From a virus (Duplodnaviria > Heunggongvirae > Uroviricota > Caudoviricetes), in the IMG/VR virus record IMGVR_UViG_2600254997_000022: a stretch of 20,766 nucleotides of DNA, one strand, 5' to 3'. The position numbers and the translations under genes were made by a program. Shown here one piece after another: positions 721-18,532 of this stretch (positions within the stretch are counted from its first letter, which is position 1; each line of letters starts with the position of its first letter). The notes beneath the pieces were generated by a model, which saw only the letters and a program-made list of their open reading frames with translations, was not told the origin of the DNA and did not search any database.

Positions 721-1008
721 TTACTGTCTCTGGCAATCTTTATCGCGATAACGCCTGAAGTACCCTCTCGCTTCCTCATCCATACCAAGAGCCGAATGAG
801 TTCGCTTAACTGCCTGTCTTAAATCTCCGAATCTGTCTGTAGTTGCTGGTGGGCGTGCCGCCCTACGGATACATTCAGAGCGTCTGTTTGCTGCATGTTC
901 ACGTTCTTTATCGCCATCTGCCAGCATCATGACTTCTGCCCATCGTGCGGCAGCTCTCCGGTATAGCCCTTTTGACTCCAGCTCTTCAGCTTTCCTGTCC
1001 CTTATCAT
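721..1008 (-). CDS. PerC-family-like transcriptional regulator (95 aa)
   Basis: ORF track. The N-terminal AEELESKGLYRRAAARWAEV motif matches the A..LE..GL.RRAA.RW..V signature I associate with PerC/Pch activators. The protein is basic and Arg-rich. Confidence 0.55.
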   Translation of the reverse strand: MIRDRKAEELESKGLYRRAAARWAEVMMLADGDKEREHAANRRSECIRRAARPPATTDRFGDLRQAVKRTHSALGMDEEARGYFRRYRDKDCQRQ

Positions 1009-1044
1009 TTCTGCCTCTCAGACTATATAGATAAGCAAAAAGGT

Positions 1045-1165
1045 GTTGGTTCAGTTGGTTCAGTTGGTTCAATTTGTAAAGAGTATTGTTTTTAAAAGGA
1101 TTATTCGCAAAAAGTGAACCAACACACCCCATTTTTGAACCAACAAAAAGAGGCCGTGAACCAAC
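1045..1165. repeat. Iteron cluster A (ori/crr-like)
   Basis: GTTGGTTCA occurs three times in tandem (1045-1053, 1054-1062, 1063-1071). An AT-rich spacer follows, then the inverted form TGAACCAAC three times at 1115, 1136 and 1157, exactly 21 bp apart. The same motif and layout recur inverted at 10873-10974. Confidence 0.8.
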
Positions 1166-1228
1166 ACGCCGTTTAAAAACCGCTAATTATGAGGGACATC
1201 CACCAGCACAGGGCTTGTCTAGTGCTGG

Positions 1229-1405
1229 TTAGGTGCTGCTCACCGCGCACGGAGCGGCGCTGGTCATCATTTCGCGGTACCGCCTGGCTATTACAGGGCC
1301 CTCTGCCAGCTGGCGCCTTAATTCCCGCAGTTCTGCCGGGCTGAGCTGGTGGCCGTCATGCTCCAGCTTGGCAATGGTCAGCAGCTCGATTTCTCGTGGT
1401 GTCAT
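1229..1405 (-). CDS. Hypothetical small protein (58 aa from the internal ATG; the ORF extends to 1432)
   Basis: ORF track. GGGGA lies 4 nt upstream of the ATG at 1405 (MTPREIELLTIAKLEHDG...). Divergent from the AlpA-like gene. No recognisable motif. Confidence 0.45.
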   Translation of the reverse strand: MTPREIELLTIAKLEHDGHQLSPAELRELRRQLAEGPVIARRYREMMTSAAPCAVSST

Positions 1406-1573
1406 GGATTCCCCTCTGATGGTGATCGGCATTATATTGCCAGCCAGGGTGATTCTTCACTGGCCGGAGCCGTTGTGCGTGAAGTCTATACGTGAACTCC
1501 ATATGCTATGTGTTAAGTTACAGCTCAAAATGTCCTGTTCCGGTGGTAACTTTTTTGGTAAACAGCGTTTTGG

Positions 1574-1608
1574 TGGATACCAACATGGATACCTCGCTTT
1601 TGGATACC
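1574..1608 (+). promoter_or_regulatory. Three direct TGGATACC repeats upstream of the plus-strand AlpA-like gene
   Basis: TGGATACC at 1574-1581, 1586-1593 and 1601-1608, 50-85 nt upstream of the ATG at 1658 in a divergent intergenic region. Candidate operator array. Confidence 0.4.
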
Positions 1609-1657
1609 GCCCAAAGCCAGATTGTCACTATGCTTAATCTAAAGCAGAGGAGCCTCT

Positions 1658-1843
1658 ATGCGCCTTATCAAATTAAGCGAAGTCATGCTCAGAACGGGCT
1701 TCAAGAAAACGGCAATCTACTCATGGGTTAAGACGGGCACGTTTCCACAGCCAGTTAAAATTGGTAGATCAGCTAGATGGTCGCTTGAGGAGGTTGAAGC
1801 TTGGATCCAGAATAAACTTGATTCGCGGGCTGGCAACCAATGA
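1658..1843 (+). CDS. AlpA-family phage regulatory protein / excisionase-type HTH (61 aa)
   Basis: MRLIKLSEVMLRTGFKKTAIYSWVKTGTFPQPVKIGRSARWSLEEVEAWI is the classic AlpA/HTH_17 pattern. GGAG lies 7 nt upstream of the ATG. Confidence 0.85.
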   Translation: MRLIKLSEVMLRTGFKKTAIYSWVKTGTFPQPVKIGRSARWSLEEVEAWIQNKLDSRAGNQ

Positions 1844-2890
1844 TTAGCTTTAATATCGAGTGGTGGATAGTCCATGGACAAGCTGATGGGCGCACTCGAC
1901 GAAAACGATGCGCCAGGCGGACTGTGTCGCTCATAAACCGGGAGTTGGCCAGAGGACTTAGTTGTCCTTTGCAATTCTGCAGGTTCGCACGTGAAAGTAG
2001 CCAAAACCCTGCGAACCTGAGTGCAAACCTGCAACTGCGAACCACTGAGGTGGCCTCTCATAGCTGGTGGTCATACTGGATATTAATCAGGCCTGCCACA
2101 ACCATAACAATCCATAACAGGCGCATCGCACTAACAATTACTAATAGGTCCGCTCGCAACACTAATTTTGACTAAGCCTGAACGCAATGCTCAGAAAGAA
2201 CGAAGAATGGAATGAATCGTACCATCATGTTGCTCCATGATTTTTACGTTCAAGACAGTTGCTTAATCTCGCCTCGCAATTCAGCCCCCTTGCCGCGATC
2301 TTGCCGTTATCGAGAAGTCTTTCTCCTTTCGGTTAATGCTATCGGTCTTCATATTACCAGCAGCATACGCCATCCGATTATTTCGATGCTACGCGCGCGT
2401 ACTTGTCGCAAAATACCAGGCAAAGGCCAGATTCAGAACGTCGTGATAACCACCAGCACAACATGAGAGGTCATGTAACGCTATTTATCACACCAGATAT
2501 ATGTGATTGGTGTACCCGCATAAAACATCGTCATAGCGCGTCCTGTGCGCATATAAGCCGATAATCAACACATCACCATCACTCTGTCTTATGTAGAGAA
2601 CAGTTTTATGGTACTCCCCTCCATTGTGTGCGTACTGGTCGGACGCAGTTGCAAAACTTTTTGCAACTGATAACCCTCGCGCGCGTACTTGTCTCGACAT
2701 TGGTGTTTTGCTGTGGCAGTGATATCAGAAAAATCTTCCTGTTTCACATAAAGCGGATATGCGCGTACTGTAACGGCCCCATCAACTGGGAGCGGATTTG
2801 AAATCCCGCCCCGAATGTGTAGGCAATGTCACTTAACGTTTGTCGCATACCTTCCAGAAAAAGCGATTCATGAATAATAGGGGCATGAAT

Positions 2891-2906
2891 GCCCGGCGTA
2901 CCGGGC
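2891..2906. terminator. GC-rich hairpin just downstream of the lipoprotein gene
   Basis: gcccgg-cgta-ccgggc, a 6-bp stem with a tetraloop, lies 8 nt past the stop at 2914. The plus-strand side is T-rich (cttattagtt) and the minus-strand side is weaker (cattcatg). It may act in both directions. Confidence 0.45.
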
Positions 2907-2913
2907 TTATTAG

Positions 2914-3612
2914 TTAATTTGGTGCTTTAGGGTCAACATTAAAAGTTATATCACCTTCTGTATTTTTCCCGGCATAGCTAGCGGCTATTCTCGCCAACCC
3001 TTTGTAATCAGCAATTCCATCAGACTGTTGCGAGACGACTGAGCTACCAACTTTCCATAACATATTAATCTGCCTATTATTGAGATAAGCCTTGGCATCA
3101 AACGACTGGAGTATCACCCCTGCGCCGTAGAACGTGTCCGTCACAGTTGTGTTATACGCGCCAGTAATTCCATAAGTAGGCGTATAAACTGTTGTTGCCG
3201 TTCCAGTGGTATTAGCTGTACCGTAGCCACCACCATAACTATTGAACGTGGTGTTCGAGTTTCCGTACGTTGTTGCTGAGCTCACACCAGTTTGCCCGTA
3301 TATTGGGATGGTTACATTACGAGTATTTGAAATGGCCCCGCTTCTCAAAAAGTTCAAGAGAATTACCTGGTCAGCCAATTTTTCATCTTTAACTTGTGTA
3401 TATCCTTGGCTTGATAAACTGGCGGCTACTACCGTAGCTATTTGAGTGTATTCAATCTGTTTGGTGTTCCAAAGTTCTTGGCTTGCGGGGATGATCAAGA
3501 ACTTCTTACCGACAGATTGCCCGGAGGATAAAGCATTGACCGTTACTAACGGTTTTTGTACGCATCCAGCCAATAATGACAGGGATAATATTAAAAGAAG
3601 ATTTTTAATCAT
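2914..3612 (-). CDS. Lipoprotein of unknown function (232 aa), moron-like
   Basis: Signal peptide MIKNLLLILSLSLLAG|C with an L-A-G-C lipobox and Val at +2. AGGTGA RBS. The central region is G/T/N/Y-rich and low in complexity. The gene looks AT-richer than its neighbours by eye and is flanked by its own candidate promoter and a hairpin. Confidence 0.85.
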   Translation of the reverse strand: MIKNLLLILSLSLLAGCVQKPLVTVNALSSGQSVGKKFLIIPASQELWNTKQIEYTQIATVVAASLSSQGYTQVKDEKLADQVILLNFLRSGAISNTRNVTIPIYGQTGVSSATTYGNSNTTFNSYGGGYGTANTTGTATTVYTPTYGITGAYNTTVTDTFYGAGVILQSFDAKAYLNNRQINMLWKVGSSVVSQQSDGIADYKGLARIAASYAGKNTEGDITFNVDPKAPN

Positions 3613-3762
3613 GATAATCTCACCTAAGAATTGCGTGGTTATAAATTATCATCACTGTAAGCGAATGTAAGCCACAGGCTCGTAATGTGATATGGAATTT
3701 TTATAGTTGGCTCAATATCAGTATGCCGTCCTTGGCTATTATGGTTTTGTTAGTTAGAGCGT

Positions 3763-4716
3763 CTATTCCCATTCGCTAACATCTTTCATGCCACTGAGGG
3801 TAGCTACAATCCCGGCCCTTGTCAGTTTCACGAATTCTTCAGCCCCAACGGCATCACGAATTGCTTTCATGGCAATTTTATTGGCCGAAAATCGTTTCTC
3901 TGCTGCGGCGATCGCTGCTGGTGATGCCCCTGCGCGCACTGCTTTTGTAGCTTCCTGAACGGCTTTCTCTATCGCATATCGACCACTTCTTGTCGCCCCA
4001 ATCTTAGCCACAGTATTTCTCAGTGCGCCACCAGCAACCAAACCACTAATCGAACCAATTACACCACCGCCAAAGCCTCCAGCGATCGCACCTGACTGTT
4101 GAACTCCGTTCATGATCACACCGACGATCTTTGGAAGGCCTGAATCGAGCGTTTTGAGAGCCTCAGTTGTTCTTCCCGTGCGCTCTACGTATCGCTGCGG
4201 TCTGGTGCTGGCTTTAGCGAGTACACCGAACTCTTTCATCATTCTACCGAGATCTGGCACATGACGACTGATGGCGTTTACATTCTGCTGGGTCATGAGC
4301 TTGGCAAAATACTGGATACCAGACTCTTCACCGATTCCTCCCTTCTCTCCCTGCGCCACAGCATGCTGAAGAATAGATGCTATTGCTGGTTGGCGTTCTG
4401 CTTCCGGCAGCGCGGAGATAAGGCGGTGAAAAGCTCCCGTTCCAGTGTTTGCGGATGCCTTAAGCGTATCGGCACCTTTTCTTACCATAGCGTCTGATGC
4501 GAGATCTCGACCAAAAAACAGATTCGGCATTTTGTTTGGCGATAATGTAACTTTTAGAGAGATCGTTAGCTTTCTGCCATTCTGTGAGGAAGTTTCCTTT
4601 TTCAGCCATGATGCGCATGTCATCAGTGATAGCTCTGCGCATTTCTCCGGCAATCCGGGCGGCATTGGCCTTACCTGCCCGGGTGTTTGCTTGTTCAGCA
4701 TCAGCAAACTTAGCAC
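3763..4716 (-). pseudogene. C-terminal fragment of the large ejection/internal-virion protein, in a shifted frame
   Basis: It overlaps the 4460-5818 ORF by 257 nt in another frame. Protein-like sequence begins only around KMPNLFFGRDLASDAMVRKG. Contains a glycine-zipper segment, GAIAGGFGGGVIGSISGLVAGGAL. Confidence 0.6.
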
Positions 4717-5918
4717 GCCATGCCTTCATCCCGTCGAAGGTTATGCCGCCACCTTGGTTGTTGGCAGCCTGAAACTGTTTCATCTCCGGGCTGAGTGGAA
4801 CATTGGCTGCTTTTTCTGCTTGGACGACAGCCATCCCATTACTCATTTTCATCCTTTCGCGTGGCATCGTGCTTCGCAGTTCTGCCCATGCCATATTCTC
4901 TGCTGTTTTCATATCACTGAGGCTCGCGATGATGCGCTCTTTAATTGCTGCGCTTTTTTCTGATGCGCTTCCAGACTCAGCACCGAAATCAGACAACTGC
5001 TTATTCAACTTTGAGGATATTTCATTGAAGGCCGTAAGGTGAGCATCCTGAACATTCCCAGGAGTTGATGCCAGAACACCTTCTGCTTGGGCAATTCCAC
5101 GACTACCTGAGCGCATTCCGGGCGTCAGGGTGTTGATATTAATACCAGTGATTTTCGCCGCCTTAGCGACATCATCTCTGACGTTTGATGCCTGCGATGC
5201 GATATGCTCTCGGCCTACGGCAGAACGCGCTGCTTTCGATACATCATTGGCGGTTTCCAGAGTATTTGCTGCCCCTAACACATGGCCTGATTGATTTGTA
5301 TTACTCCGCAATACATCTCGCATTACGTCACTGGCTGTCTGTCCGCTCTTTATTAAAGCGCGTGCTCCTAGCGATCCTGCTAGGCCAATACCTGTCTCTT
5401 TTGCTAGGTCTTCTGGGCTGATCTGCCCGTTCTTTTGGGCGTTCACCAATGTACCTGGCAGGTTTTCTGCCAACATACTAGCCACCTTTGTGGCCGCACG
5501 TTCAGCACGTGGAGCGTTGGCAACGGAAGAAGCTGTGGTAGCTGCCTTTCCTGCACCTAATCCTGTAATAAGGTAAGGTGCTAGCTGCTCACCAGCCTGC
5601 GCGTATGGATCTGTAGGTTGGTCTACTGGGCGAAAGACAGGTGATATGGGCGTGTATGTGCCATCACCCACACCAAGCTTCTGAGCTGCCCATGCTCCGG
5701 CTGATTGCGCCGCATTGACTACCCCCACGCCTGCGTCCATTACATCAAACGGTATATTAGCAATCCCTCTGGCCATCTGCTCTGGCGCAGCTTTCAGTCC
5801 TGGCGAAAGATATTCCATCTCAGGATTAAGGTTAGACTTGGCTATTTGCTGCTGCGGTTCCCCGGCATTTTCATCGGCGAGAAACTGAGCTCTTTTCTGC
5901 TCCCATGAACTGGCTGTT
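4460..5918 (-). pseudogene. Middle fragment of the large ejection/internal-virion protein
   Basis: The 452-aa ORF (4460-5818) stays open upstream to the IS629 junction at 5918 (TASSWEQKRAQFLADENAGEPQQQIAKSNLNPE-MEYLS). This frame joins the 7230-7804 fragment once the IS and one GTT copy are removed. Confidence 0.7.
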
Positions 5919-5972
5919 TGAACCGCCCCGGGAATCCTGGAGACTAAACTCCCTGAGAAAGAGGTAAACAGG

Positions 5973-6299
5973 ATGACTAAAAATACTCGTTTTTCCCCCG
6001 AAGTCCGTCAGAGGGCGATTCGTATGGTTCTGGAAAGTCAGGGCGAATATGACTCACAGTGGGCGGCAATTTGTTCCATTGCCCCAAAGATTGGCTGTAC
6101 ACCGGAGACTCTGCGTGTCTGGGTACGCCAGCATGAGCGGGATACCGGAGGCGGTGATGGCGGGCTCACCACCGCTGAACGTCAGCGTCTGAAAGAGCTG
6201 GAACGTGAAAATCGTGAACTGCGCCGCAGTAACGATATCCTTCGCCAGGCTTCCGCTTATTTTGCGAAGGCGGAGTTCGACCGCCTCTGGAAAAAGTGA
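5973..6299 (+). CDS. IS629 OrfA (108 aa, HTH)
   Basis: ORF track. The stop overlaps the orfB ATG (TGATG), and GGAAAAAG just upstream sits where IS3-family -1 frameshifting occurs. Confidence 0.92.
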
Positions 6300-7187
6300 T
6301 GCCACTGCTGGATAAGCTGCGTAAGCTGTACGGGGTCGGACCGGTATGCAGTGAACTACATATTGCCCCGTCAACGTATTACCACTGTCAGCAACAGCGA
6401 CATCATCCTGATAAACGCAGTGCCCGTGCGCAGCGCGATGACTGGCTGAAGAAAGAGATACTGCGCGTATACGATGGGAATCATCAGGTATACGGTGTGC
6501 GTAAAGTCTGGAGTCAGTTGTTACGGGAAGGAATCAGGGTAGCCAGATGTACAGTGGCGCGCCTCATGGCGGTTATGGGACTTGCCGGTGTTCTCCGGGG
6601 TAAAAAGGTCCGTACGACCATCAGCCGGAAAGCCGTTGCCGCAGGCGACCGCGTAAACCGTCAGTTCGTGGCAGAACGACCTGACCAGCTGTGGGTGGCT
6701 GATTTTACTTACGTCAGCACATGGCAGGGCTTCGTCTATGTGGCGTTCATCATTGATGTGTTTGCCGGATACATTGTGGGGTGGCGGGTCTCGATCGTCC
6801 ATGGAGACGACATTCGTGCTGGATGCACTGGAGCAGGCGTTATGGGCCCGTCGACCGTCCGGCACGGTCCATCACAGTGATAAAGGTTCTCAGTATGTAT
6901 CGCTGGCCTACACACAGCGGCTTAAGGAAGCCGGATTACTGGCATCAACAGGAAGTACAGGCGACTCGTATGACAACGCGATGGCGGAGAGCATCAATGG
7001 TCTTTACAAAGCGGAGGTAATACACCGTAAGAGCTGGAAAAACCGTGCAGAAGTGGAACTGGCCACACTCACGTGGGTGGACTGGTATAACAATCGACGA
7101 TTGCTGGAAAGGCTGGGCCATACTCCTCCGGCAGAAGCAGAAAAAGCTTATTATGCTTCCATCGGAAACGATGATCTGGCAGCCTGA
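6296..7187 (+). pseudogene. IS629 OrfB transposase (DDE), split by a frameshift
   Basis: Two overlapping ORFs (6296-6880 and 6738-7187) each carry transposase sequence: ...GYIVGWRVS in one frame, then SSMETTFVLDALEQALW... in the next. The switch is near 6790-6800 (gtctcgAtcgtcc). As I recall, intact IS629 OrfB is a single ~296-aa ORF. Confidence 0.75.
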
Positions 7188-7229
7188 GTTCACAGATAAA
7201 ACACTCTCCAGGAAACCCGGGGCGGTTCA

Positions 7230-7804
7230 GTTGGTAGTCCTGCTTCTATGTTCTTAAATTGCTGACGTTTTGCTTCCCATGCAGAAATATCTCCCACCTG
7301 AGAGATTTCTTTATCAAGCTCTGAGTAGTCAGGCTGCTGAAGATTGCGATGTTGACTGGTTTGTGCAAACTGCAAGATTTCACTGTCATCAGGGATTATT
7401 CCGGCATCTGCAAATTTACTTACGTAATTAGCCGTTTCATCTGGCAGTGTAGATTTACCGTTTCTGACGGCATTAATACGAGCATAGCCAGAATTATACC
7501 CAGCCAATGCCATACCAATATCACCAAATCGCTTCATTCCTTTATTGAGATGGTTTGCTGCGATATCCATTTGCTTTTCAAATGGCAGTGAGCGCGGATC
7601 AGTTCCACGATAACCAGCATCACTCATTACTGAGGGCATCAGTTGAGCAAATCCTCTAGCTCCTTTCGGTGACTCGGCACTTCCGTTACCACTAGATTCA
7701 TTGCCAACTAATGTTTCCATCGTCCCTGATGGGAAACCATATTTTTCATCGAGATGACGGGAATAGGCTTTCTGTTTTTCTGTCAGTTGTGCCATCATTG
7801 CCAT
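7230..7804 (-). pseudogene. N-terminal fragment of the large ejection/internal-virion protein: SLT lytic transglycosylase domain
   Basis: Family-1 lytic transglycosylase motifs: catalytic E-S (GNESSGN), GARGFAQLMP, and AGYNSGY. The annotated 204-aa ORF (7190-7804) ends with 13 residues (from the junction codon) read from the IS629 end (..TEPPRVSWRVFYL). Confidence 0.85.
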
Positions 7805-9114
7805 CCCTTAAGTTTTGCCTGATAGTAACTTTCCGGCAGATAGCCATGTGCGGTCACATAATCCTTAACCAGTGAAGGATCCTGCAACAGCATTTTGGTA
7901 TCAGTTTCTTCGTCCTTTGATTTGGTTACAGGAATACCGAGCCCGGCAATCTGTCGTTTCTGCATTCGAATAATTACGTCCTGCGCTTTATTCAACTCTC
8001 GCAAAAATGCCTCATTGCTGGTTGCTGACTTAATGCCATTTTGAGATTGCATAAGGGCAGCCCTTTCCCCTTCGGTTGGGTTAGAGCCAAAAGTCCCTTT
8101 GAGGCTAGGCAGAATAACCTTTAGGTTGTATTCATCAGCTTTGGCGCGTAGGCTTCGTGTGTCTTCTGCTACATCAGGAAGGAATCCAAACCCCAGCGTC
8201 AGGGGGTTATAGTTCTGCGAGCGGGTAACGGCCGAAGGATGTTTCCCTACAATTCCCGCCAGTTCATGACCCACTTCAAGCGCAGAGTTCAAGGAGTCGA
8301 TGTTACCTGCAACAGTATTAATTTTATCGTTCATCTTCTCCACTTTCGCCTGCTGTACTTTGCTCAGTTCAGCATTGAGCTTGTCTCTCTCGATGTCATT
8401 TTGAGCACGTCCAAGTCGTGCTTTCAGAACCATTTCTCTCGTGCGTAGTTGGTTATCGGATAGGACTTTGAACTGCTCCATATCGAGACGCCGATTACCC
8501 AGTTCCGCATTAACCTGAGCATTATATGCAGATGTATCTGCGTTCTGCTGTGCAATGCTCTGCCCTTGCTGCTTCTCTTGAACACTAAAGTAACTATTTG
8601 GATCAGCATGGAGGTGGATGAGGTCAGTGATTCTGTTGAATTCCTGTGGGTCATTCTGCCAAGACTGATAAACCTCTTCAGCAGGAAGACCAAATCGCTG
8701 TAATACTGGATTTGCCTGCTGAATGGCCTTCTGCATGGTCAGTGGATCTCCAGTTTGTGACGCAAGACGCAGATTCATGGCAGCGTCAGCGGTCTGTCGA
8801 TTTTGCTCAGCATCAATGAATCCCATCTGTTTTTGAGAATCAGCCATAAACTGGGGATACTGGGCCATTAACTTCTGCACGCCAACACGATCATTATTAG
8901 CTACCGCACTACCCAACCGTGCCTGATATTCTTTTAGCTGCTGGGAAATTTGCGCCTGCTGATTAATCTCAGCAACGCCTCTTAGCCCCTGTAGCGCCAT
9001 TAAACCTACGTTTGGCTGCTGCTGATACTGCACAGGCTGAGGAACGGAAGAACGAGGAGCATTATCATTTTGCGGTGCCATGCTAGGCAGCCCGCCAAGT
9101 TGCCATGTCGCCAT
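7795..9114 (-). CDS. Ejection / DNA-transfer-like protein (439 aa), in the P22 gp20 position
   Basis: Q/N/A-rich with predicted coiled-coil character. The start overlaps the upstream stop (TAATG) and the stop overlaps the downstream start by 10 nt. Size and position parallel P22 gp20 (~470 aa). Homology was not verified. Confidence 0.6.
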   Translation of the reverse strand: MATWQLGGLPSMAPQNDNAPRSSVPQPVQYQQQPNVGLMALQGLRGVAEINQQAQISQQLKEYQARLGSAVANNDRVGVQKLMAQYPQFMADSQKQMGFIDAEQNRQTADAAMNLRLASQTGDPLTMQKAIQQANPVLQRFGLPAEEVYQSWQNDPQEFNRITDLIHLHADPNSYFSVQEKQQGQSIAQQNADTSAYNAQVNAELGNRRLDMEQFKVLSDNQLRTREMVLKARLGRAQNDIERDKLNAELSKVQQAKVEKMNDKINTVAGNIDSLNSALEVGHELAGIVGKHPSAVTRSQNYNPLTLGFGFLPDVAEDTRSLRAKADEYNLKVILPSLKGTFGSNPTEGERAALMQSQNGIKSATSNEAFLRELNKAQDVIIRMQKRQIAGLGIPVTKSKDEETDTKMLLQDPSLVKDYVTAHGYLPESYYQAKLKGWQ

Positions 9115-9791
9115 TAGAATCCAAGCCCCCCAACAAGACCAATAAGCCCACCACCAATAGCCCCGGCGACATTACCTATACCCGGAACAACGGAACCAAG
9201 TTGCGCACCCGCTAAAGCGCCTGATGCCGCCCCACCAATACCACGCGCAAGACTGGATGGCTGCTGCGCCTGACCTGCACGAATAGCGCCAAGCCCCTGC
9301 AAGAGTTGTCCGGTATTATTGGCGTAGTTTTGCCCTGCTGTTGCCTGCCCTGATGCCGCATTCATCCCGACATTTAGCAGGTTTCCATAATTTTGCATTT
9401 GCCCACTGAGCCAATTGTTATAAAGCATGGGCGCAATGGAAGATAACTGGTTACTGGTAGCTGTTGAGCCAAGCCCCCCGGTAGCTTCTGCTGAGACAAG
9501 GTTCTGATAACGGGCCTGATCTGCCTGTGTTTTATATAAACCAGAACCAAAGAAATCATTCGCGGCTTTATTCTGCCCTTCCAGAGTCATCAGTCCTTGT
9601 AGTTGTTGTAAAGCAGGCAATCCGACTTCTGCATACGGCTTGAGATTATTCATCACCGTATTCCACTGCTCGCGCTGCAAATCAATTGCCTGCTGCTGGG
9701 CCTTCGCCTGAGCTTTAGAGGCACCACCATCACCGCCTTTTTCGTATACGGCACGATTGAGATATTTATGAGCTATATGGGTAATTAACAT
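9114..9791 (-). CDS. Ejection / DNA-transfer-like protein (225 aa), in the P22 gp7 position
   Basis: Q/G/A/N-rich, with a C-terminal glycine-zipper hydrophobic tail (GIGGAASGALAGAQLGSVVPGIGNVAGAIGGGLIGLVGGLGF). Size parallels P22 gp7 (~229 aa). Translationally coupled on both sides. Confidence 0.6.
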   Translation of the reverse strand: MLITHIAHKYLNRAVYEKGGDGGASKAQAKAQQQAIDLQREQWNTVMNNLKPYAEVGLPALQQLQGLMTLEGQNKAANDFFGSGLYKTQADQARYQNLVSAEATGGLGSTATSNQLSSIAPMLYNNWLSGQMQNYGNLLNVGMNAASGQATAGQNYANNTGQLLQGLGAIRAGQAQQPSSLARGIGGAASGALAGAQLGSVVPGIGNVAGAIGGGLIGLVGGLGF

Positions 9792-10246
9792 TCGCTGAAT
9801 TCCTTATATTGTTGCCGAGTTAACTGATAAAGCATTACGCCGACGGGTTTACCACATCTGATATAAGCATCATCAAGGTGACCAACACGGGTAGCGCCAA
9901 GCAAACGGATAATTGCCCGTCCGTATTTGGTGGTGTCAGGAACCATGGTAATGCTGTTAAGGAATGGTGAGTTTTCGAGAAGCCATTTGCAGAATAATCG
10001 ATGCCCTTGCAGTGCATATTCACCACGGAATCCGGGGTCGTACACCGCATGGCATTCAACAATGTTATGCCAGAAGTTACGCACTTCATGAACGCCAGCC
10101 AGCACCAATCCTTCGTAGATACCGAGATATACCGCATCAGGCTTGATGTAGTACGTGTGCCCCGGCTCAACAATATTTTCGGTATTGCCAGGCTCGTTAA
10201 GAAAGGCCTGTAATCGCACAGGGTTATCAATAAATTTTAGTTCCAT
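9785..10246 (-). CDS. 153-aa protein in the P22 gp14 position, with a weak GNAT-like motif
   Basis: ORF track. First large gene of the coupled block. DPGFRGEYALQGHRLFCKWLLE loosely resembles acetyltransferase motif A. Size parallels P22 gp14 (~160 aa). Function is uncertain. Confidence 0.5.
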   Translation of the reverse strand: MELKFIDNPVRLQAFLNEPGNTENIVEPGHTYYIKPDAVYLGIYEGLVLAGVHEVRNFWHNIVECHAVYDPGFRGEYALQGHRLFCKWLLENSPFLNSITMVPDTTKYGRAIIRLLGATRVGHLDDAYIRCGKPVGVMLYQLTRQQYKEFSEC

Positions 10247-10262
10247 GCGATGCCATCCATTT

Positions 10263-10424
10263 TCACATACAGCCTGCCAGCGCCTTATCTATTAACCCTC
10301 GTGCAATTTCATGCAGAGTTGGCGCTACTCCAATTCCTGATTTTTTACGCTGCTCTTCCTGAATTTTCTTTATCGCTTCCATTTGCTTCTCACTTATCAA
10401 TACCGGCTTTACTGAAATAGCCAT
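10263..10424 (-). CDS. Ribbon-helix-helix (Arc/CopG-like) small DNA-binding protein, 53 aa; below the ORF-track cutoff
   Basis: The reverse strand reads MAISVKPVLISEKQMEAIKKIQEEQRKKSGIGVAPTLHEIARGLIDKALAGCM. AGGGGG RBS lies 5 nt upstream. The beta-strand/helix/helix spacing is typical of RHH proteins. The stop is 17 nt before the next ATG. Confidence 0.65.
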   Translation of the reverse strand: MAISVKPVLISEKQMEAIKKIQEEQRKKSGIGVAPTLHEIARGLIDKALAGCM

Positions 10425-10439
10425 AACGCCCCCTTAGAA

Positions 10440-10463
10440 CTGTATAAAACAACAGTTATTATA
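10440..10463 (-). promoter_or_regulatory. TATAAT -10 element followed immediately by a perfect LexA box
   Basis: The reverse strand reads ATGAAT-N17-TATAAT-AA-CTGTTGTTTTATACAG. The CTGT-N8-ACAG core is at 10440-10455 and the -10 at 10458-10463. The box covers the predicted transcription start, 15 nt upstream of the RHH start codon. Confidence 0.7.
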
Positions 10464-10517
10464 GTTTCATAAATCGCAACATTCATCATCGTAATTGCAA
10501 AATATGAAACATATAGC

Positions 10518-10552
10518 ACAAAAAAATGCCACCGCTCAGTAGCTGGTGGCAT
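10518..10552 (-). terminator. Strong intrinsic terminator for leftward transcription from the primase/ori side
   Basis: Stem atgccacc (10526-10533) / ggtggcat (10545-10552) with an 11-nt loop. On the reverse strand it is followed by T7. It separates the replication module from the SOS-boxed operon. Confidence 0.8.
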
Positions 10553-10872
10553 CGTTCTGTGTGTCAGGTTTTGACAGGTTTTTTATGGACTCTAAAAACT
10601 ATATTTATGGTGTCGCATTACTCTTCACGGCAGGCGCTTTTCAGTTCTGCCCTTGCTTCTGGCTCCATTGGTAATTTGATTCGCGATCAGCTATGCGGAT
10701 GGTTTGCTGAACAGGCATAACAACTTCTCAAGGGCTGTTTTCTGAACTACGAAAATTTCGTAGTGCTCACTTTCAAAAACGTCACGCCCTTGTACACAGG
10801 ATTTTACGAAAGTCTCGTAAAACACTCTCTGATGCCAGCCAGGTGTTGTGCGCATCAATTCAGTCACATTGT

Positions 10873-10974
10873 GTTGGTTCAAAATACCGTGTTGTTGGTT
10901 CAGTGTTGGTTCAATAAAAAGAATAAAATCCTTATAAAACAATACCCTTTATAAATTGAACCAACTGAACCAAC
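10873..10974. repeat. Iteron cluster B (ori/crr-like), immediately downstream of the primase-helicase gene
   Basis: GTTGGTTCA at 10873, 10894 and 10905 (21- and 11-bp spacing). An AT-rich spacer follows, then TGAACCAAC in tandem at 10957 and 10966. The reverse complement aligns with cluster A, including the spacer (atttataaagggtattgtttt vs atttgtaaagagtattgtttt). Confidence 0.8.
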
Positions 10975-10999
10975 ACCTTTTCTACGCACATGAAGAAGC

Positions 11000-13759
11000 T
11001 CATTCTTCAGATGAGTTGTAATCTCCTGGCTGGTAATTGAGTACATAAACGTTTATTTGTCGTCCCTGAATACGTGGTGATTTTCTTTGGTATCCACGAC
11101 CGCTGTTTGGTGGGGTTAGCATCCCGGCTTTTTTCAACACTTCAGCAAACTGTTTTGCGTTGAAACCACATGCGATCTCCTTTTCAAATGTGGCCGGGAA
11201 TGTGTAGAAAATCATTGGGCTTTCGTCATGTTCTCCACGCTGACGGTATCCGGCTAAATCTTTGATGGGCAAATCTGCCGGGCTGTATGGAAATGGTGCA
11301 AAACGGCTAAGCCCATAGGCATTAAGAAATGCCTCCGTTTGTTCAATAATCTGCTGATGTTCTTTGTTACCTGTGCCGAACTCGCGCAACCATGCGTTAT
11401 AGCTGTGCTGTATCGCATCACGGCATGTCTGAGCATCCCAGCCTGTTACAACCTCGCCTAACAGCAATGCGGCCTCCAGAATGGCAAATCGCGCGGCTAC
11501 ACGGTGAACCTGCTCACCATAATCGGATGGGATCAGACTTCTCCATCTGCTTTCGCGGTCACGAACAGTTTTAATTGCCTGTTGCTGGTGGTCTGCCAGC
11601 CATTTAATCCACTCACGCCCGGCTGCGCCGTGGTGATGCTGGTAAGCGTCTTTCAGTGCGTCTGCGTGCTGTTTTCCGTTCTGGTAATCGTGAAAGCGTA
11701 CTGCTTTACTCAACGGAATATTCAGCAGTCGCACCAGTTGCCCGGCTTTGGTTTTTCGCCCGGAAGTAGCGATAAATGTTTCTAAATCCATTTCTCCGGT
11801 GCTGATTGCCACTGTACGCCAGCGTTTTAGATCCCGGTTTCCACCATCTTTAGCGCCTTGCAGTTTCCCTACACCGTTAAATAACGCATAGGCAGACTGT
11901 GAAACACTGACAGGATCAGCGCCCTGACCAACTTCATCAAGCGGCATTAGTCCGTCATTGTGGGCGGCAGCTTCATTTGCCAGCCCCAGCGCGGTTCCGT
12001 ACCACGTCAGCCGCAGTAAATCAGGGTTGCCGTATAAGCTGCTCGCCACGTTTGCCGTGGTGGTCTTACCTGCGCTCGACTGCTCATAGAAATGAATGCC
12101 GAACCCGTCAGCGCCCACCAGCCCAATCAATGGCGCTGCCAGTGCTGCGCCGATCCCGGTCATCATTGAATAGTTACCAAAGGCCAGACGCGCCACGTTA
12201 TCACGCCAGCTTTTCGCGCTCCCTGAGACGGTATATCCGGCTGCGGCTGAGCTTCTCCCGCTGAACAGCACAGGATTTTCAGGTGTTCCGATGATTTCCC
12301 CATCAGGCATGATGTACGCTCCGCATTGCCAGCCAGTGGCATGAGCAACACGCCACAATTCACGAGAGCCACTGCGTTGTAGCCAGTCTGCCAGTATTGC
12401 TCTGAGGCTGCTTTTGGTCGTGACATTTACCCCACCAGCTTTAAGTGTGCGCCATCCTTCACGTTCACCAATATCAGCCAGTGGAATGGCAGCGGTTGTC
12501 GGCGTTTCAGAACCAAACGACAGCCAGCGAAGAATGAGATACTGGTCTTTATCGTCTCTGCCAGTACCGATAACGCTTAACGGAGAACATAACCAGCTTT
12601 CGTTATTGATGATTTCTCCACTCTGGCTGTCAGCTCTCGGAGATACCCAATAAATACCATCCTCGCGGCTTTCTATTCTTGGTTTCAGTGGGTCGGTATC
12701 CATAACCTTAAAATCGCTTCCCTCAATGGTCTGTGGCTCCTGTTTCACGCCATTACCCTGTGGTTGGTACATTGACTTATTGAACGCTTCTGTGGCGCAT
12801 TTAATGCCGTGTTTTTGGTGGTAATCATTCCAGTCTGCTTTGTGATCTGTCGGGGGTAATGCCACCCATCCAGAAACAGATAAAGCTGCTTTTTCTGCTG
12901 CTCTTCTCCCCGTGTTTTGTCTTCCTTCGCTGTGGTCGTTATCCGCAGCAATGATGATTTGTGCTGAAGGAAATTTATCCCGCAGTACCTGGGCGACATA
13001 TAACAGGTTCCCGGCATCAATCGCCGCCACTGTCAGCGCCTCTGGGCGAATTAAATGGGCAGATAATGCCGTTGCCAGCCCTTCTGCGATTAAGATGCTC
13101 TGTGTTGTTTCTGGTGCGTTTATGGCGTGATATGCCCCTCGCTTTGCTGAACCTGTCAGGAGTCTTTTTTCACCATGTGAGGTAATAGTCTGTGCTGCTG
13201 TGACTGCGCCGGATTTATCCACCAGCGCCAGCAACAGAGATCCATCGGGCAACACGGGGAATGTAAAATCACCTACCCCTTTCGCAACCAGATAATCAGA
13301 TTTGCCGTTTACAGCCTTTCTGCGCATGTCATCAAACTGACGGGAAAACGTATCCCGTCTTTGTTGTTCGTCCTTCTCTGCCCTTTTCAGGCGCTCCTGT
13401 TCGCGTCGCTGGCGCTTGGTTTCCAGTTGTTCCCGTTTCTGGCTGGTGGCTTCTGGTGTTTCCGTTGTCCGGTAATCAATACCCAGAACATCAGCGGCAA
13501 GAAGCGCCGCCTCTGTTGTGTCGCAGTTATTTACGCGTTTAATTAAATCCAGCCCATCACCAGCGCCGCACTGATTACAGATGAAGCTACCGCGCCCGTT
13601 GTCATCGAACCGGAATCGATCTTTTCCCCCACATGCAGGGCAGGGAGCATGACGGCGCGGAGAGTCAGGGACATTTATGTTCAGGCAGCCCAGCACATGA
13701 GGCCAGTTGTTTTCAGACGCACTGATAACCTGACGGATAAGATCAATGTTTCGCATCAC
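11000..13759 (-). CDS. Primase-helicase, P4 alpha-like (919 aa)
   Basis: N-terminal zinc ribbon CPACGGKDRFRF..FICNQCG. TOPRIM-like acidic motifs (ILIAEGLATALS, IIIAADNDHSE). Walker A in YEQSSAGKTTTANV. The long C-terminal region fits an origin-binding domain. Confidence 0.9.
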   Translation of the reverse strand: MMRNIDLIRQVISASENNWPHVLGCLNINVPDSPRRHAPCPACGGKDRFRFDDNGRGSFICNQCGAGDGLDLIKRVNNCDTTEAALLAADVLGIDYRTTETPEATSQKREQLETKRQRREQERLKRAEKDEQQRRDTFSRQFDDMRRKAVNGKSDYLVAKGVGDFTFPVLPDGSLLLALVDKSGAVTAAQTITSHGEKRLLTGSAKRGAYHAINAPETTQSILIAEGLATALSAHLIRPEALTVAAIDAGNLLYVAQVLRDKFPSAQIIIAADNDHSEGRQNTGRRAAEKAALSVSGWVALPPTDHKADWNDYHQKHGIKCATEAFNKSMYQPQGNGVKQEPQTIEGSDFKVMDTDPLKPRIESREDGIYWVSPRADSQSGEIINNESWLCSPLSVIGTGRDDKDQYLILRWLSFGSETPTTAAIPLADIGEREGWRTLKAGGVNVTTKSSLRAILADWLQRSGSRELWRVAHATGWQCGAYIMPDGEIIGTPENPVLFSGRSSAAAGYTVSGSAKSWRDNVARLAFGNYSMMTGIGAALAAPLIGLVGADGFGIHFYEQSSAGKTTTANVASSLYGNPDLLRLTWYGTALGLANEAAAHNDGLMPLDEVGQGADPVSVSQSAYALFNGVGKLQGAKDGGNRDLKRWRTVAISTGEMDLETFIATSGRKTKAGQLVRLLNIPLSKAVRFHDYQNGKQHADALKDAYQHHHGAAGREWIKWLADHQQQAIKTVRDRESRWRSLIPSDYGEQVHRVAARFAILEAALLLGEVVTGWDAQTCRDAIQHSYNAWLREFGTGNKEHQQIIEQTEAFLNAYGLSRFAPFPYSPADLPIKDLAGYRQRGEHDESPMIFYTFPATFEKEIACGFNAKQFAEVLKKAGMLTPPNSGRGYQRKSPRIQGRQINVYVLNYQPGDYNSSEE

Positions 13760-14114
13760 CGTACCCCACGTGGTCTATAGCGTTTGCGATATGGCTAACC
13801 AGCATCTGCCACTTGGTTATTCCGTAATCAGTCAGCATGCCATCATTGTTTAGCCACATATCAAATTCAGCGGTTGTCGCAAGTTTCCACTGATCGCCGT
13901 GGACAGTTCTCATTGCTGGGTACATGAATGCGCAAATCAGATCACAAACATCTGACGGCTTCAGAGATGTAGTAATGGTGCGTCCCTCTGGCGTCTGAAT
14001 TGCCATTTTCTCTTCACCAGTAGAATGAAGGTTATGAATCCACACAGCACCAGCAATCTTTGCCACCTGCTCTCCGATTGCGGAGCTAAGCGCCATTTCT
14101 GCATTTTCACGCAT
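13743..14114 (-). CDS. Hypothetical protein (123 aa)
   Basis: GGGAGG RBS 6 nt upstream. Overlaps the primase start by 17 nt and the upstream stop by 8 nt. Confidence 0.65.
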   Translation of the reverse strand: MRENAEMALSSAIGEQVAKIAGAVWIHNLHSTGEEKMAIQTPEGRTITTSLKPSDVCDLICAFMYPAMRTVHGDQWKLATTAEFDMWLNNDGMLTDYGITKWQMLVSHIANAIDHVGYGDAKH

Positions 14115-14448
14115 GAGAACCTCCCGCTACAGTTGCGCCCATGTCATTAACCATGCTTTGCCATATCTCACGCCCGACGTCAGTCAATCCGTCCTTATTG
14201 ACGCAACGCTCAAGAAGCTCGATCCCCACGGTTTCCCACTGCGGGTAGAACACTTTCATGGCTGCCAGTGTGTAGCTATCGATCAGGCTGCGAACGCCTT
14301 TTACTCCATTGACGATTTCCACACGTACGGCCTTGCCGTCCGCATCAACCATGAAATAGTCCCCGTCGCTGGTGGAGGTAATGTGGTTATACAGTGCCGA
14401 CGCATACTTATTTGCCAGCGCATTCAGTCGGAAATTTTTAGTAATCAT
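14107..14448 (-). CDS. Hypothetical protein (113 aa)
   Basis: ORF track. GGATGGAG RBS. Coupled to the downstream gene. Confidence 0.65.
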   Translation of the reverse strand: MITKNFRLNALANKYASALYNHITSTSDGDYFMVDADGKAVRVEIVNGVKGVRSLIDSYTLAAMKVFYPQWETVGIELLERCVNKDGLTDVGREIWQSMVNDMGATVAGGSHA

Positions 14449-14458
14449 GGCTCCATCC

Positions 14459-15061
14459 TCAGTGCGTCACTGGTTCCGCTGGCATGCCGTTTTCATTCAG
14501 TTCAGCTATAAAGCTGTTGTGAAGTTCAGCAAGCGTTTCACGACCAAATGGAGTCAGTGCTCCTTGTTCCACATCCATCATGGCTCTGTAGAAAATGATG
14601 GCGCGTTCTGTGCCAGACTCGATGCCAAAACGTTCTATCATCGCGCCCTCAATGTTGTTTGCCATAGCGAGACGCTCTGCTACTGGATACAGCGGCATGG
14701 CGACGATGCCGTTGGAATAAACAGCCACTTCGGAAGGATTGCCAGTATCATCAATGATGCTGACAGTGCCGTTTTCCTCTCTCATTTCCAGCATGAATAC
14801 TGTTGCGATCAGCCATCTCCACATAATGACGTTATGCTGTGATGTGTAATCGAAATATCCCTGGTTGCCGCCATCGGCAATAGCGAGATGTATTGACATA
14901 CCTTCATCTGGTTTATCGTCATAATCCCCGGCATCCAGACGATTTACGGCATCAATATATGAGACGGCCTCAACGCGTTCTGTCATGCCATCGTTGCTGC
15001 GGTACATGATGTTTACGCCGTCAGGCGTTGCTTCTGCATGGAACGTTAAGAAATTATTCAT
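14459..15061 (-). CDS. Hypothetical protein (200 aa from MNNFLTFHAE; the track ORF extends to 15166)
   Basis: The ATG at 15061 overlaps the stop of the upstream ORF (ATGAATAA). The longer N-terminal extension would overlap that ORF by more than 100 nt. Confidence 0.6.
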   Translation of the reverse strand: MNNFLTFHAEATPDGVNIMYRSNDGMTERVEAVSYIDAVNRLDAGDYDDKPDEGMSIHLAIADGGNQGYFDYTSQHNVIMWRWLIATVFMLEMREENGTVSIIDDTGNPSEVAVYSNGIVAMPLYPVAERLAMANNIEGAMIERFGIESGTERAIIFYRAMMDVEQGALTPFGRETLAELHNSFIAELNENGMPAEPVTH

Positions 15062-15275
15062 GTTTCGCCTCGCCTGAATGATTCTGTAACTCATATTTGC
15101 CCAACAATTCGTCCGCTTCCTGAATAGCTTCTGGTACGCCATTGAGCAGTGACATAACCGCGCCAATCATTAACTTGTCTCTGTTGCTGGGGCTGGCCCC
15201 TTCAAGCCAGAACCCTAAAACAGTCTGAACCTGTTCGATGCGACATTGCGCTTCGATGAGCTGGATGTTGGTCAT
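15054..15275 (-). CDS. Hypothetical small protein (73 aa)
   Basis: ORF track. Start and stop overlap both neighbours. Confidence 0.55.
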   Translation of the reverse strand: MTNIQLIEAQCRIEQVQTVLGFWLEGASPSNRDKLMIGAVMSLLNGVPEAIQEADELLGKYELQNHSGEAKHE

Positions 15276-15535
15276 TTCGCACTCTCCGCATCGATTAAAC
15301 TGATATCTATCAGAGAGGTAACTTTTTGTAGCCAGCTAGTGATTACTGTCGCCTGTTCCCCTCCCACCGATGGAAGAATCTCATTCATCACATGAACCAG
15401 ACCTGTGCGCGCTCTGGTAAGCCGTTCAGTCGTGCGATCTGCAAGAGTGAATGTGTCTGGATATGGCTCTTCACGGCTCAGCAATGATTCAATTTCCAGC
15501 TCACACGGATGACGATAAATTAAGTTGATATTCAT
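15272..15535 (-). CDS. Hypothetical small protein (87 aa)
   Basis: ORF track. 4-nt overlaps with both neighbours. Confidence 0.55.
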   Translation of the reverse strand: MNINLIYRHPCELEIESLLSREEPYPDTFTLADRTTERLTRARTGLVHVMNEILPSVGGEQATVITSWLQKVTSLIDISLIDAESAK

Positions 15536-15726
15536 TTTTCACCCCCAAGAATTACCAGCTCTGCACGGGCATCGTTAACCAAAGATGAGCACGCTTTAAT
15601 CGCATCCACGACATCAACAGCGTCCATTTCTTCAGCCGAAAGATTGACAGCAACCAGGACAGCCGCTGCTTGCTCGATTAATTGAAGTGCGGACGTAAGT
15701 CGATGGGCATTAATTGAGTTATTCAT
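15532..15726 (-). CDS. Hypothetical small protein (64 aa from MNNSINAH)
   Basis: GGGGG RBS upstream of the ATG at 15726. The longer form to 15783 would overlap the upstream gene. Confidence 0.5.
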   Translation of the reverse strand: MNNSINAHRLTSALQLIEQAAAVLVAVNLSAEEMDAVDVVDAIKACSSLVNDARAELVILGGEK

Positions 15727-15937
15727 TGGTTGCCCCCGTTTTTCCTGGCATTTCGCCACCTTCCAGCAGGAAATGAACGTCACGAACGGCGAGATCCAAT
15801 ATCGCGAGTAACGCCTTCAGTCTTTCGTCTCGTGAGGGAGAGTTGCTCACCAGAATGTCGTTAATCACTTCTGTCAGTGTGATGATCTGGCTTGTGCGTT
15901 CGAGGGGATCCATATGCACATCGTAGGTTTTAATCAT
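15719..15937 (-). CDS. Hypothetical small protein (72 aa, MIKTYDVHMDP...)
   Basis: GGAGGTGG RBS. The ATG overlaps the stop of the Icd-like ORF (ATGATTAA). The 210-aa track ORF 15719-16351 is an upstream read-through of this frame across the structured leader. Confidence 0.55.
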   Translation of the reverse strand: MIKTYDVHMDPLERTSQIITLTEVINDILVSNSPSRDERLKALLAILDLAVRDVHFLLEGGEMPGKTGATNE

Positions 15938-16124
15938 GTGCCACCTCCATGCGGATACGACCAGCAAAAAAGCAGACGTGATCGCGCACCAGAGAACGGC
16001 GAGCATCGCGTTCAGACTCGGCAGCAATATGATGAATTTTGGCGGTAATTGTCGGGTAATCGCGGCGAACTGCGGCGATAATCCAGATAAATTGCGGTTT
16101 TTGGGTAGTGGTAGTAGCCAGCAT
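15930..16124 (-). CDS. Possible Icd-like (host cell division inhibitor family) small protein, 64 aa
   Basis: AAGGAGG RBS 7 nt upstream. FIWIIAAVRR...ESERDARRSL...CFFAGRI resembles what I recall of P1 Icd-like proteins. Sits directly behind a c4-like structured leader. Confidence 0.45.
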   Translation of the reverse strand: MLATTTTQKPQFIWIIAAVRRDYPTITAKIHHIAAESERDARRSLVRDHVCFFAGRIRMEVAHD

Positions 16125-16143
16125 GTGGCAGCCTCCTTGTACT

Positions 16144-16261
16144 GGGAATTCTTCCCACCACCGGAGCTGCGAAACTCGCTGGTGGTGGACTGAACAGAGT
16201 TCGCAGTACCGGCGTACAAGGAAACCGGCCAGCCTTTCGGCTGCCCTGTCCAGCCCACCAT
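16144..16261 (-). ncRNA. Candidate c4 / CI-type antisense (immunity) RNA or cis leader
   Basis: Dense stems on the reverse strand: CAGCC-GAAA-GGCTG, GTAC-GCCG-GTAC, CCACCACC...GGTGGTGG, CTGCGAA...TTCGCAG. Two segments are complementary to the contiguous RBS region GTACAAGGAGGCTGCC of the downstream ORF: GGCAGCC (+ coordinates 16239-16245) and TCCTTGTAC (+ coordinates 16214-16222). Confidence 0.5.
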
Positions 16262-16281
16262 AATTTTACAAGCGACGCGGA

Positions 16282-16788
16282 TTATAACCACATCACCGAA
16301 AAAAGTGTGAGTCTGGCTAACGGCACAGAAAAAGACGCTCGGCGCGTCCATGTGTCGCCTCGTACATTTCCGGGCTTGCGAAACCCGGCACCCGTTTTAT
16401 GAGGTGCCTTATAACCATAAACCGTGTTGCCGCATAACGGCAAGCTCTTTTTTATGGACTCCGAAAACTCACTATTGGAAGAACCAGAAGCACAGTACAT
16501 CGCGCTCATTTCGTTAACGTCACGCGCGTAGACGAATGTTTTTGTGGAGTCACTACACGAGCAGAACAGGTGATCTACGACCAGAAATTCTCTGGCGCAG
16601 CCGCTGACCTTCTCAACGCTAACACCATCGACCGTAATTTCTGACATAGTTAAGGCATCCGCTCCTACCACCAGCAAATGATAAACTTTGCTTGTATCTG
16701 CTATATTAATGTCTGACTTTGCTGTCATATTGCTGGATTTTGGCGACATACCAGCCAGTGAAAATATCTTCTTCTGGGCGGTTAGCAT
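16282..16788 (-). CDS. Hypothetical protein (168 aa)
   Basis: GGAGG RBS 9 nt upstream. The ATG overlaps the upstream stop (ATGCTAA). The C-terminal ~40 aa look low-complexity, so the true end is uncertain. Confidence 0.5.
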
Positions 16789-16964
16789 TTGTTAACCTCC
16801 GTGAACTCCTTCATGAAACGTGCCAGCGGTTGTACGCATGGCGATTGATACCCGTCGCGATAAAACGTCACTCGGTTGTGAGACACGCTTTCGACAGTAA
16901 CGAGTGCTCCGTGGGCATCTTTGTAGCGTTTTTGGGGTTGTGGTGTTCCTGTCGGTTTAAACAT
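16782..16964 (-). CDS. Small protein (60 aa from MFKPTGTPQ), possibly DUF4222-like
   Basis: GGAGG RBS. The ATG overlaps the antirepressor stop (ATGTTTAA). The KRYKDAHGALVTVESVSHNRVTFYRDGYQSPCVQP pattern recalls DUF4222 phage proteins, from memory. Confidence 0.5.
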   Translation of the reverse strand: MFKPTGTPQPQKRYKDAHGALVTVESVSHNRVTFYRDGYQSPCVQPLARFMKEFTEVNKC

Positions 16965-17790: not shown

Positions 17791-17802
17791 TTTCAGTCTC
17801 CG

Positions 17803-18437: not shown

Positions 18438-18504
18438 GATTCCCGTAACCTCTTAGCGATAGTTGTTGCTTCGTTACGAGAAATCTAGCTGTATAGATAT
18501 ACAA

Positions 18505-18532
18505 TGAAAAGGTACTGTAATTTTGCAGTACC
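18505..18532 (-). terminator. Intrinsic terminator after the int-orf316 unit
   Basis: Stem ggtactg (18511-18517) / cagtacc (18526-18532) with an 8-nt loop. On the reverse strand it is followed by TTTTC. Lies 12 nt past the stop at 18544. Confidence 0.7.

Follow-up and report, generated by a model that had tools for sequence, protein, structure and literature searches.

What is the role of two inverted clusters of one short repeat at either end of the cargo of a mobile island? The question was raised by a 20,766-nucleotide stretch of DNA (the window, by which we mean the whole stretch analyzed) filed as a virus record of the Caudoviricetes (IMG/VR IMGVR_UViG_2600254997_000022). The window is an EcCIMP1-like phage-inducible chromosomal island (PICI) of E. 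coli, and its two iteron clusters, A (1045-1165) and B (10873-10974), lie 9.7 kb apart. The original prediction, made from the letters alone, had likened them to the origin of replication (ori) and the cis replication region (crr) of phage P4, and had offered inversion of the intervening segment, or a junction of two related elements, as alternatives. The analysis reported here indicates that A and B are probably cognate units of what was ancestrally a single contiguous origin. This split and duplicated PICI origin is like P4 ori/crr in layout only.

The confinement of the 9-mer GTTGGTTCA/TGAACCAAC to the two clusters was confirmed, with 11 exact matches in the window, all in A and B. Dinucleotide-preserving shuffles (n=100) contained a mean of 0.14 matches and a maximum of 1, and none of the 100 reached 11. 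Copies with one mismatch outside the clusters were isolated, scattered singles in a scan of the window. As a complete inverted ori unit, defined by the iteron matches and the A/B alignment, A extends over 1038-1167 (minus strand). In the direction of the primase gene it consists of three iterons at 21-bp phase, a 43-nt AT-rich spacer and three tandem iterons. The phased copies of GTTGGTTCA start at 1115, 1136 and 1157, in exact 21-bp phase (1115-1165, minus strand); the spacer (1072-1114, 77% A+T) is homologous to that of B and is a candidate DNA-melting region; the tandem copies start at 1045, 1054 and 1063 with a period of 9 bp (1045-1071, plus strand).

B is a canonical PICI-type ori unit directly 3' of the primase-helicase gene pri-rep, assigned to 10871-10981 (minus strand) from the iteron matches and from its layout in relatives. 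Only 25 bp separate the stop codon of Pri-Rep from the end of B, in agreement with the predicted abutment. In the primase direction B presents two tandem iterons (starts 10957 and 10966, minus strand), a 43-nt spacer with 84% A+T (10914-10956), and three iterons spaced 11 and 21 bp (starts 10873, 10894 and 10905, i.e., 21 then 11 bp in window order, plus strand). The expected architecture of a tandem set, an AT-rich spacer and an opposed spaced set was found in both clusters, but the strict 21-bp phase and the three tandem copies are features of A alone. Across about 130 bp the two clusters are homologous in inverted orientation, spacers included, as had been noticed, and one arm pair is 39 nt long at 95% complementarity. 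Aligned with their flanks, they gave 221 columns at a mean identity of 76%, and the similarity ends at the cluster edges (AAAAGGT ... CAACAC). On the far side of A, the tandem iterons end 36 bp from the start codon of perC. Scanning for terminators around A and B detected only generic terminator-like hairpins in the B region, and none within the cluster.

The origins of Staphylococcus aureus pathogenicity islands (SaPIs) and of E. coli PICIs lie directly 3' of rep and have opposed iterons on either side of an AT-rich region, and the SaPI Rep protein binds the iterons with a C-terminal winged helix and self-loads there as a helicase (PMC9371898, PMC6092414). B shares the position directly 3' of pri-rep with the origins of SaPI1, SaPIbov1, SaPI5 (PriRep5) and EcCICFT073 (pri-rep-ori), and the layout of these origins is found in A (3 + 3 iterons, 77% A+T) as well as in B (3 + 2 iterons, 84% A+T). 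The initiators are probably alike as well: in both cases a primase is fused to a DUF927/Rep/Cch-type helicase, which in Pri-Rep is presumed to load itself and was modelled with a C-terminal winged helix. In contrast to the SaPI and PICI origins, the unit in the window is duplicated in inverted orientation, with 11-12 iterons and two spacers, and 9.7 kb of DNA with accessory genes separates the copies. In published drawings, the origin of an E. coli PICI is a single unit (PMC6092414, Fig. 2a legend).

In order to learn whether the separation of the units is general, we compared 80 loci encoding relatives of the primase (one genome per species, with up to 10 kb of flank). In about 30 of these relatives, both units lie directly 3' of the primase stop codon, about 35 bp apart and together within about 330 bp. 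The compact type was found in Enterobacter, Klebsiella, Erwinia, Morganella, Tatumella, Lonsdalea, Pantoea, Providencia, Proteus, Xenorhabdus and other Enterobacterales. Its common layout can be written as >>> - 43 AT - < 2 < 12 < - centre - three phased copies - spacer - <<<, with often a motif like CTGGCTGGCAG between the units and often perC afterwards. Position and layout of B recurred in all primase relatives. As the two clusters are adjacent in about 30 relatives, their separation is not a property of the system. By outgroup comparison, in which all distant specificity groups are compact, we took the compact state as presumably ancestral.

The two units of a locus also share their specificity. 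At least eight iteron types occur across the lineages (examples are GTTGGTTCA, TGTTGTCTC, TAACCCGT, GTCGGTTCA, GTTGTACCA, TGACACACT, TTATCCCA, TGGTAACA and GTGTAACA), and both halves of each locus carry one and the same type. In 21 of 29 compact-type loci, an 8-mer learned from the B half alone had 4-8 further copies within the 275 bp that follow, and 0-3 copies in the remaining 22 kb or so of the locus. Across eight genera, the mean pairwise identity within cluster A was 96% for the iterons, 70% for the AT spacer, 50% for the 12-nt gaps between phased iterons and 42% for the flanks. Sites that bind a protein and are kept by selection would be expected to show such a pattern.

The second unit comes in two forms. 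The first, < 12 < 14 >, has a 34-nt GC-rich spacer (26-38% A+T), was found in 11 compact relatives and always adjoins B. The second, > 12 > 12 >, has a 43-nt AT-rich spacer and is either adjacent to B or separated from it. All 10 of the 10 separated A units were of the AT-rich form, with 72-88% A+T and 43 nt as in B (Fisher P = 0.0013, phylogeny being ignored), so only a unit that is complete as an origin occurs away from B. By virtue of this spacer, which in the window and in all separated cases is partly homologous to that of B, A has everything that B has.

All seven E. coli islands sampled with a cognate primase were split, with gaps of 1.9-9.7 kb and differing cargo. The distance between A and B is 9.7 kb in the window, 8.4 kb in L001 and in EcCIMP1 (L087), 7.0 kb in L083, about 7 kb in L089 and L090, and 1.9 kb in L002. 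Between their clusters, the E. coli islands carry ejection modules of two or four genes, an Abi-family gene, and other genes that are hypothetical. Outside E. coli, split forms were found in Leclercia, Cedecea, Lonsdalea, Chimaeribacter and Pantoea; in Rosenbergiella an A-type unit lies 8 kb past a partial primase match, and Vitreoscilla has a gap of 0.46 kb. In three of the split loci outside E. coli, perC is located within the gap, which implies that the second unit shifted with respect to the cargo in at least two different ways. A pair of Lonsdalea britannica islands shows both states side by side: the two are collinear at 93-97% identity to the end of B, after which one enters A and the right flank at once, and the other does so after 5.86 kb.

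On the B side the cargo begins right after the motif CTGGCTGGCA (10833-10842, minus strand), which is the centre found between the two units of compact origins; on the A side it ends just before the first phased iteron. The window contains four copies of CTGGCTGGCA, all on the minus strand (1438-1447, 10833-10842, 12327-12336 and 18258-18267), versus 0.04 expected. The accessory segment between the ori units (1168-10832, minus strand) comprises orf53, a P22-type ejection module, a lipoprotein gene, alpA_1 on the opposite strand, and an IS629 element. An open reading frame (ORF) of 67 aa between the distal copy of CTGGCTGGCA and A (1229-1432, minus strand) had no Pfam or PADLOC match. At the A-proximal end of the inter-cluster segment, an Abi-family gene was seen in the E. 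coli members L083 (14709-15686), L084 (14696-15658) and L091 (3212-4189); the same position in the window is taken by alpA_1 and the lipoprotein gene. This region looks like a variable accessory slot.

Split islands also occur as separate molecules. L002 (NZ_CP148430) is a 12,152-bp circular record of a split island in a complete assembly, and an identical integrated copy is present in the chromosome of the same strain. L091 (NZ_LT599831, labelled phage_14408_2) is a circularly permuted record of 19,226 bp with a perC-attP-int junction. These records show that split islands excise and reach extrachromosomal copy numbers sufficient for assembly; they do not tell apart which cluster fires.

The protein that reads the iterons is most plausibly the C-terminal domain of the primase-helicase, as judged from sequence comparison and a structural model. 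Pri-Rep (11000-13759, minus strand; 919 aa), the presumed initiator, has a primase zinc ribbon, a Toprim domain and a DUF927 helicase according to Pfam and PHROG. Its profile matched SaPI Rep 8tch with E = 2.6e-8, and the nearest structures to its helicase are SaPI Rep and Cch. The C-terminal region (aa 690-919, encoded by 11003-11692, minus strand) was modelled as a helical bundle with a winged-helix-like end, and the modelled fold matches the C-terminal region of SaPI Rep and a winged-helix binder of the origin of transfer (oriT).

A more specific candidate emerged from closely related primases with different iterons. Those of the GTTGGTTCA and TGTTGTCTC types are about 80% identical overall and 84-100% identical across most of the C-terminal half. 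Ten alignment columns cleanly separate the two types, and 7 of the 10 fall within aa 892-911 of 919 (codons at 11027-11086, minus strand; binomial P = 2.6e-10 for the clustering), where GYQRKSPRI in the GTTGGTTCA type is changed to GYQGRV-RE in the TGTTGTCTC type. In the model, these residues lie between the helix at 868-877 and the last strand at 903-909, the expected place of the wing of a winged helix, and they are a candidate specificity wing. The Morganella primase, only 56% identical overall, uses GTTGGTTCA and retains GYQRKSPR. No simple residue-to-iteron code emerged beyond these two closely related specificity groups.

The original prediction had asked whether both clusters are always present in related islands. 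A-only relatives do occur, but all that were seen either have a swapped replication module or are decayed islands. In L084 and L085, which share backbone and site with the complete islands, the DUF927 Pri-Rep is replaced by a DUF5906 protein and two small genes (L084 20742-22500, L085 19617-21226). These modules bring iterons of their own, of the GGTACAGG type, which form two clusters with about 1.3 kb between them. L086 is a decayed O111:H8 remnant with A only.

Several observations weigh against reading A and B as two working units of one origin. L084 and L085 retain an orphan A beside perC with six perfect copies of GTTGGTTCA, and hence A can persist without a cognate initiator. The intactness of this orphan says little, since its flanks are nearly identical to those of complete islands and the swap looks recent. 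Only B was seen in the available sequence, limited by flank or contig ends, of 5-6 relatives (L003, L014, L017, L023, L025 and L026). The TGTTGTCTC iteron is also used by a primase of 52% identity (L031) with another wing motif, and the residue-to-iteron code is accordingly not simple. A consensus promoter scan found no sigma-70-like promoter at A or B, and the literature searched contains no demonstration that Pri-Rep binds or fires either cluster.

On balance we still regard the split PICI origin as probable, and propose the following mechanism. Pri-Rep would bind the 9-mers via the winged-helix end of its C-terminal domain, self-load as hexamers on either side of the AT-rich spacer and melt the spacer, as SaPI Rep does, and prime. 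Initiation would take place at B and probably also at A. In the usual state of the family, the two units abut after the primase as a single compound origin of some 290 bp, with perC next to it; in the lineage of the window, P22-type ejection genes and variable genes sit between the units, at the CTGGCTGGCA centre. An excised circular island would then present two Pri-Rep loading sites 9.7 kb apart. Because A overlaps the region just upstream of perC, occupancy by Pri-Rep may affect perC transcription; such an effect is plausible but unsupported, the consensus promoter scan being negative there. Pri-Rep binding, the firing of A as an origin and any effect on perC are inferred.

The proposal could be taken further. 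A and B might be two working origins of opposite polarity that deliberately bracket the accessory slot, as an adaptive device for gene dosage and cargo exchange and not as an accident of insertion, but we think this rather unlikely. If it were true, Pri-Rep would fire at both clusters or synapse them on induction, the ejection genes and the variable, defence-type slot would be replicated first or most, and recombination in the conserved 130-bp flanks would allow related satellites to exchange cargo.

A bipartite origin that is obligate, as in P4, would differ from two cognate units in its division of labor: one cluster, probably B, would initiate, and the other would be a crr-like cis enhancer that acts via Pri-Rep looping across 9.7 kb. 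We consider this possible but not likely. According to the annotated GenBank record of P4, from which we took the ori and crr features, the same iteron is present at two loci, namely crr, which adjoins the 3' end of alpha, and ori, at a distance of 4.7 kb. A single P4 crr repeat, with its two tandem copies at 9-bp period, its spacer and its dispersed copies, resembles one unit of the window, and both clusters were kept in every sampled E. coli island with a cognate primase. The P4 iterons are reportedly read by the C-terminal domain of the primase-helicase. The two systems differ in several ways. P4 crr consists of two direct 120-bp repeats, whereas A and B are copies of a single unit in inverted orientation; additional type-2 repeats are present in P4 ori, whereas no second repeat type was found at A or B; the alpha helicase family contrasts with DUF927; and the separation is fixed in P4 but lineage-specific here. 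Looping would be needless in most relatives, where the units are about 35 bp apart, and an enhancer does not need the AT-rich spacer of its own that separated A units always have. Of the predicted ori/crr pair, the evidence supports that the clusters belong to the replication apparatus; it does not support a P4-type pair as proposed, in view of the adjacency in about 30 relatives, the DUF927 helicase and the differing repeats.

Somewhat less likely still is a control function of A, either as an array for titration or handcuffing of Pri-Rep or as an operator that ties perC and alpA_1 transcription to the level of the initiator, with B as the sole origin. The P1 incA and F incC loci provide the precedent: each is a second array of the initiator's iterons outside the array adjoining the initiator gene. 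These arrays have no melting region and lie on the other side of the initiator gene, whereas A has a full AT-rich spacer and lies, like B, downstream of pri-rep. The constant position of A, always directly upstream of perC or an equivalent first downstream gene and beside a divergent gene, speaks for control, as does its retention beside perC after the swap of the replication module. The GC-rich second spacer of 11 compact relatives would be poor for melting, and their second unit would fit an array of the incA or incC kind. Against a control array in the window stand the spacer of A, AT-rich and 43 nt long like that of B, and the lack of a detected sigma-70-like promoter at A.

Little remains for the view that A is a functionless leftover, be it the ori left by another element that has decayed or a passenger carried along with perC by recombination, and we consider it quite improbable. 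It would account for the A-only arrangements of L084 and L085 (swapped module) and L086 (decayed), and for the second alpA gene beside A. A leftover would hardly be expected to keep its iterons at 96% identity across eight genera when the 12-nt gaps have fallen to 50%, or to change its iteron in step with the first half in at least eight specificity groups. No primase or integrase remnant adjoins A. The related suggestion of a junction between two elements was rejected on the same grounds, as no second primase or integrase remnant was found near A and both clusters lie inside the sequenced ends of EcCIMP1, a single experimentally mapped and excising PICI, as well as in two extrachromosomal assemblies. 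The least probable alternative is a switch in which the roughly 130 bp of inverted homology, with its 39-nt arm at 95%, would drive inversion of the 9.7-kb segment: a chimeric junction expected from recombination within the shared arm was compared with all complete E. coli genomes and none of the 576 with matches covered at least 80% of it (the best, at 56%, was the uninverted half), the ORFs scanned included no serine or tyrosine invertase, the only recombinase being the terminal island integrase, and in every split locus the cargo was oriented alike with respect to the primase.

The island that carries the split origin is closely related to EcCIMP1, the PICI of E. coli MP1, whose helper is the P22-like phage Kapi1 (Pick, Stadel and Raivio 2025, PMC11773190). 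EcCIMP1 circularises only with Kapi1 and is transduced by it, and its ends were mapped by sequencing (PMC11773190); the paper makes no mention of iterons or of an origin. Leaving aside the insertion sequence (IS), the window is 98.2% identical to EcCIMP1 over 925-5918 and 98.8% identical over 7230-18244, and gene content and synteny agree (alpA, antA, ash, primase, DUF2824, DNA-transfer genes, alpA_1 and perC). Both clusters are present in EcCIMP1, at 9853-9973 and 18393-18513 of locus L087, inside the mapped ends. In contrast to EcCIMP1, the island in the window has a different integrase, is integrated between dinD and yicC of E. coli and not at tRNA-Thr, and carries IS629 in its gp16-like gene.

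On the minus strand, the gene order starts with the integrase, an alpA-like gene, antA, ash, small ORFs and Pri-Rep, and reaches cluster B. It continues with a small ORF, DUF2824, P22_gp7 and Inj_translocase (gp20-like), after which comes an SLT-domain gp16-like gene that the IS629-type element interrupts. At the far end follow the lipoprotein gene, a second alpA on the plus strand, cluster A and perC. The perC-family gene directly downstream of A (721-1008, minus strand) keeps this linkage in compact and split relatives. The second AlpA-family gene (1658-1843, plus strand), which corresponds to alpA_1 of EcCIMP1 (PMC11773190), reads away from A. A tRNA scan found none in the window. Searches of the phage collection gave no match to the whole element, only to IS629 and short pieces, with partial phage homologues for the primase, and PADLOC identified no defence match in the window among the cargo and backbone ORFs.

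The P22-type ejection module (3763-10246) consists of DUF2824 (gp14-like), P22_gp7, Inj_translocase (gp20-like) and the SLT gp16-like gene, and comes without capsid or terminase genes. The island has its own P22-type ejection genes, and the phage that helps the near-identical EcCIMP1 is itself P22-like. The IS629/IS1203-type element of the IS3 family occupies 5906-7233, with inverted repeats at 5919-5943 and 7205-7229, and splits the gp16-like gene, intact at 2721 bp in relatives, into 7190-7804, 4460-5818 and 3763-4716. Helper-dependent mobilization of the copy in the window may be impaired by this insertion. Between B and the first cargo gene we noted a LexA-box-like site, AACTGT-N8-ACAGTT, at 10438-10457, and another of this form at 70-89 in the dinD promoter, at the left end of the window; the cargo operon may thus be under SOS control. 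The ash-family gene appears as two overlapping ORFs (15719-16351 and 16282-16788), and is probably frameshifted, since relatives annotate a single coding sequence of 1068 bp.

The kind of origin and the island family described here are known. Three features appear to be unreported: the inverted duplication of the origin unit across this family of primases, the way in which cargo separates the copies in the lineage of E. coli, and the candidate specificity wing. None of the literature that we searched describes a PICI origin that is duplicated or split. EcCIMP1-like islands with the GTTGGTTCA iteron were found in 542 of 5426 complete E. coli genomes (about 10%), and the origin of these islands had not been described previously. 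The present work provides an origin map for a tractable PICI, together with a predicted specificity determinant (wing residues 892-897) and natural specificity variants. Variable satellite cargo, Abi-type genes included, is located inside the origin region. The relatives form a natural series in which the loading units are adjacent, 0.5 kb apart, or up to about 10 kb apart, and this series could show whether self-loading Rep helicases need paired cis sites, a question left open for the SaPI Reps (PMC9371898).

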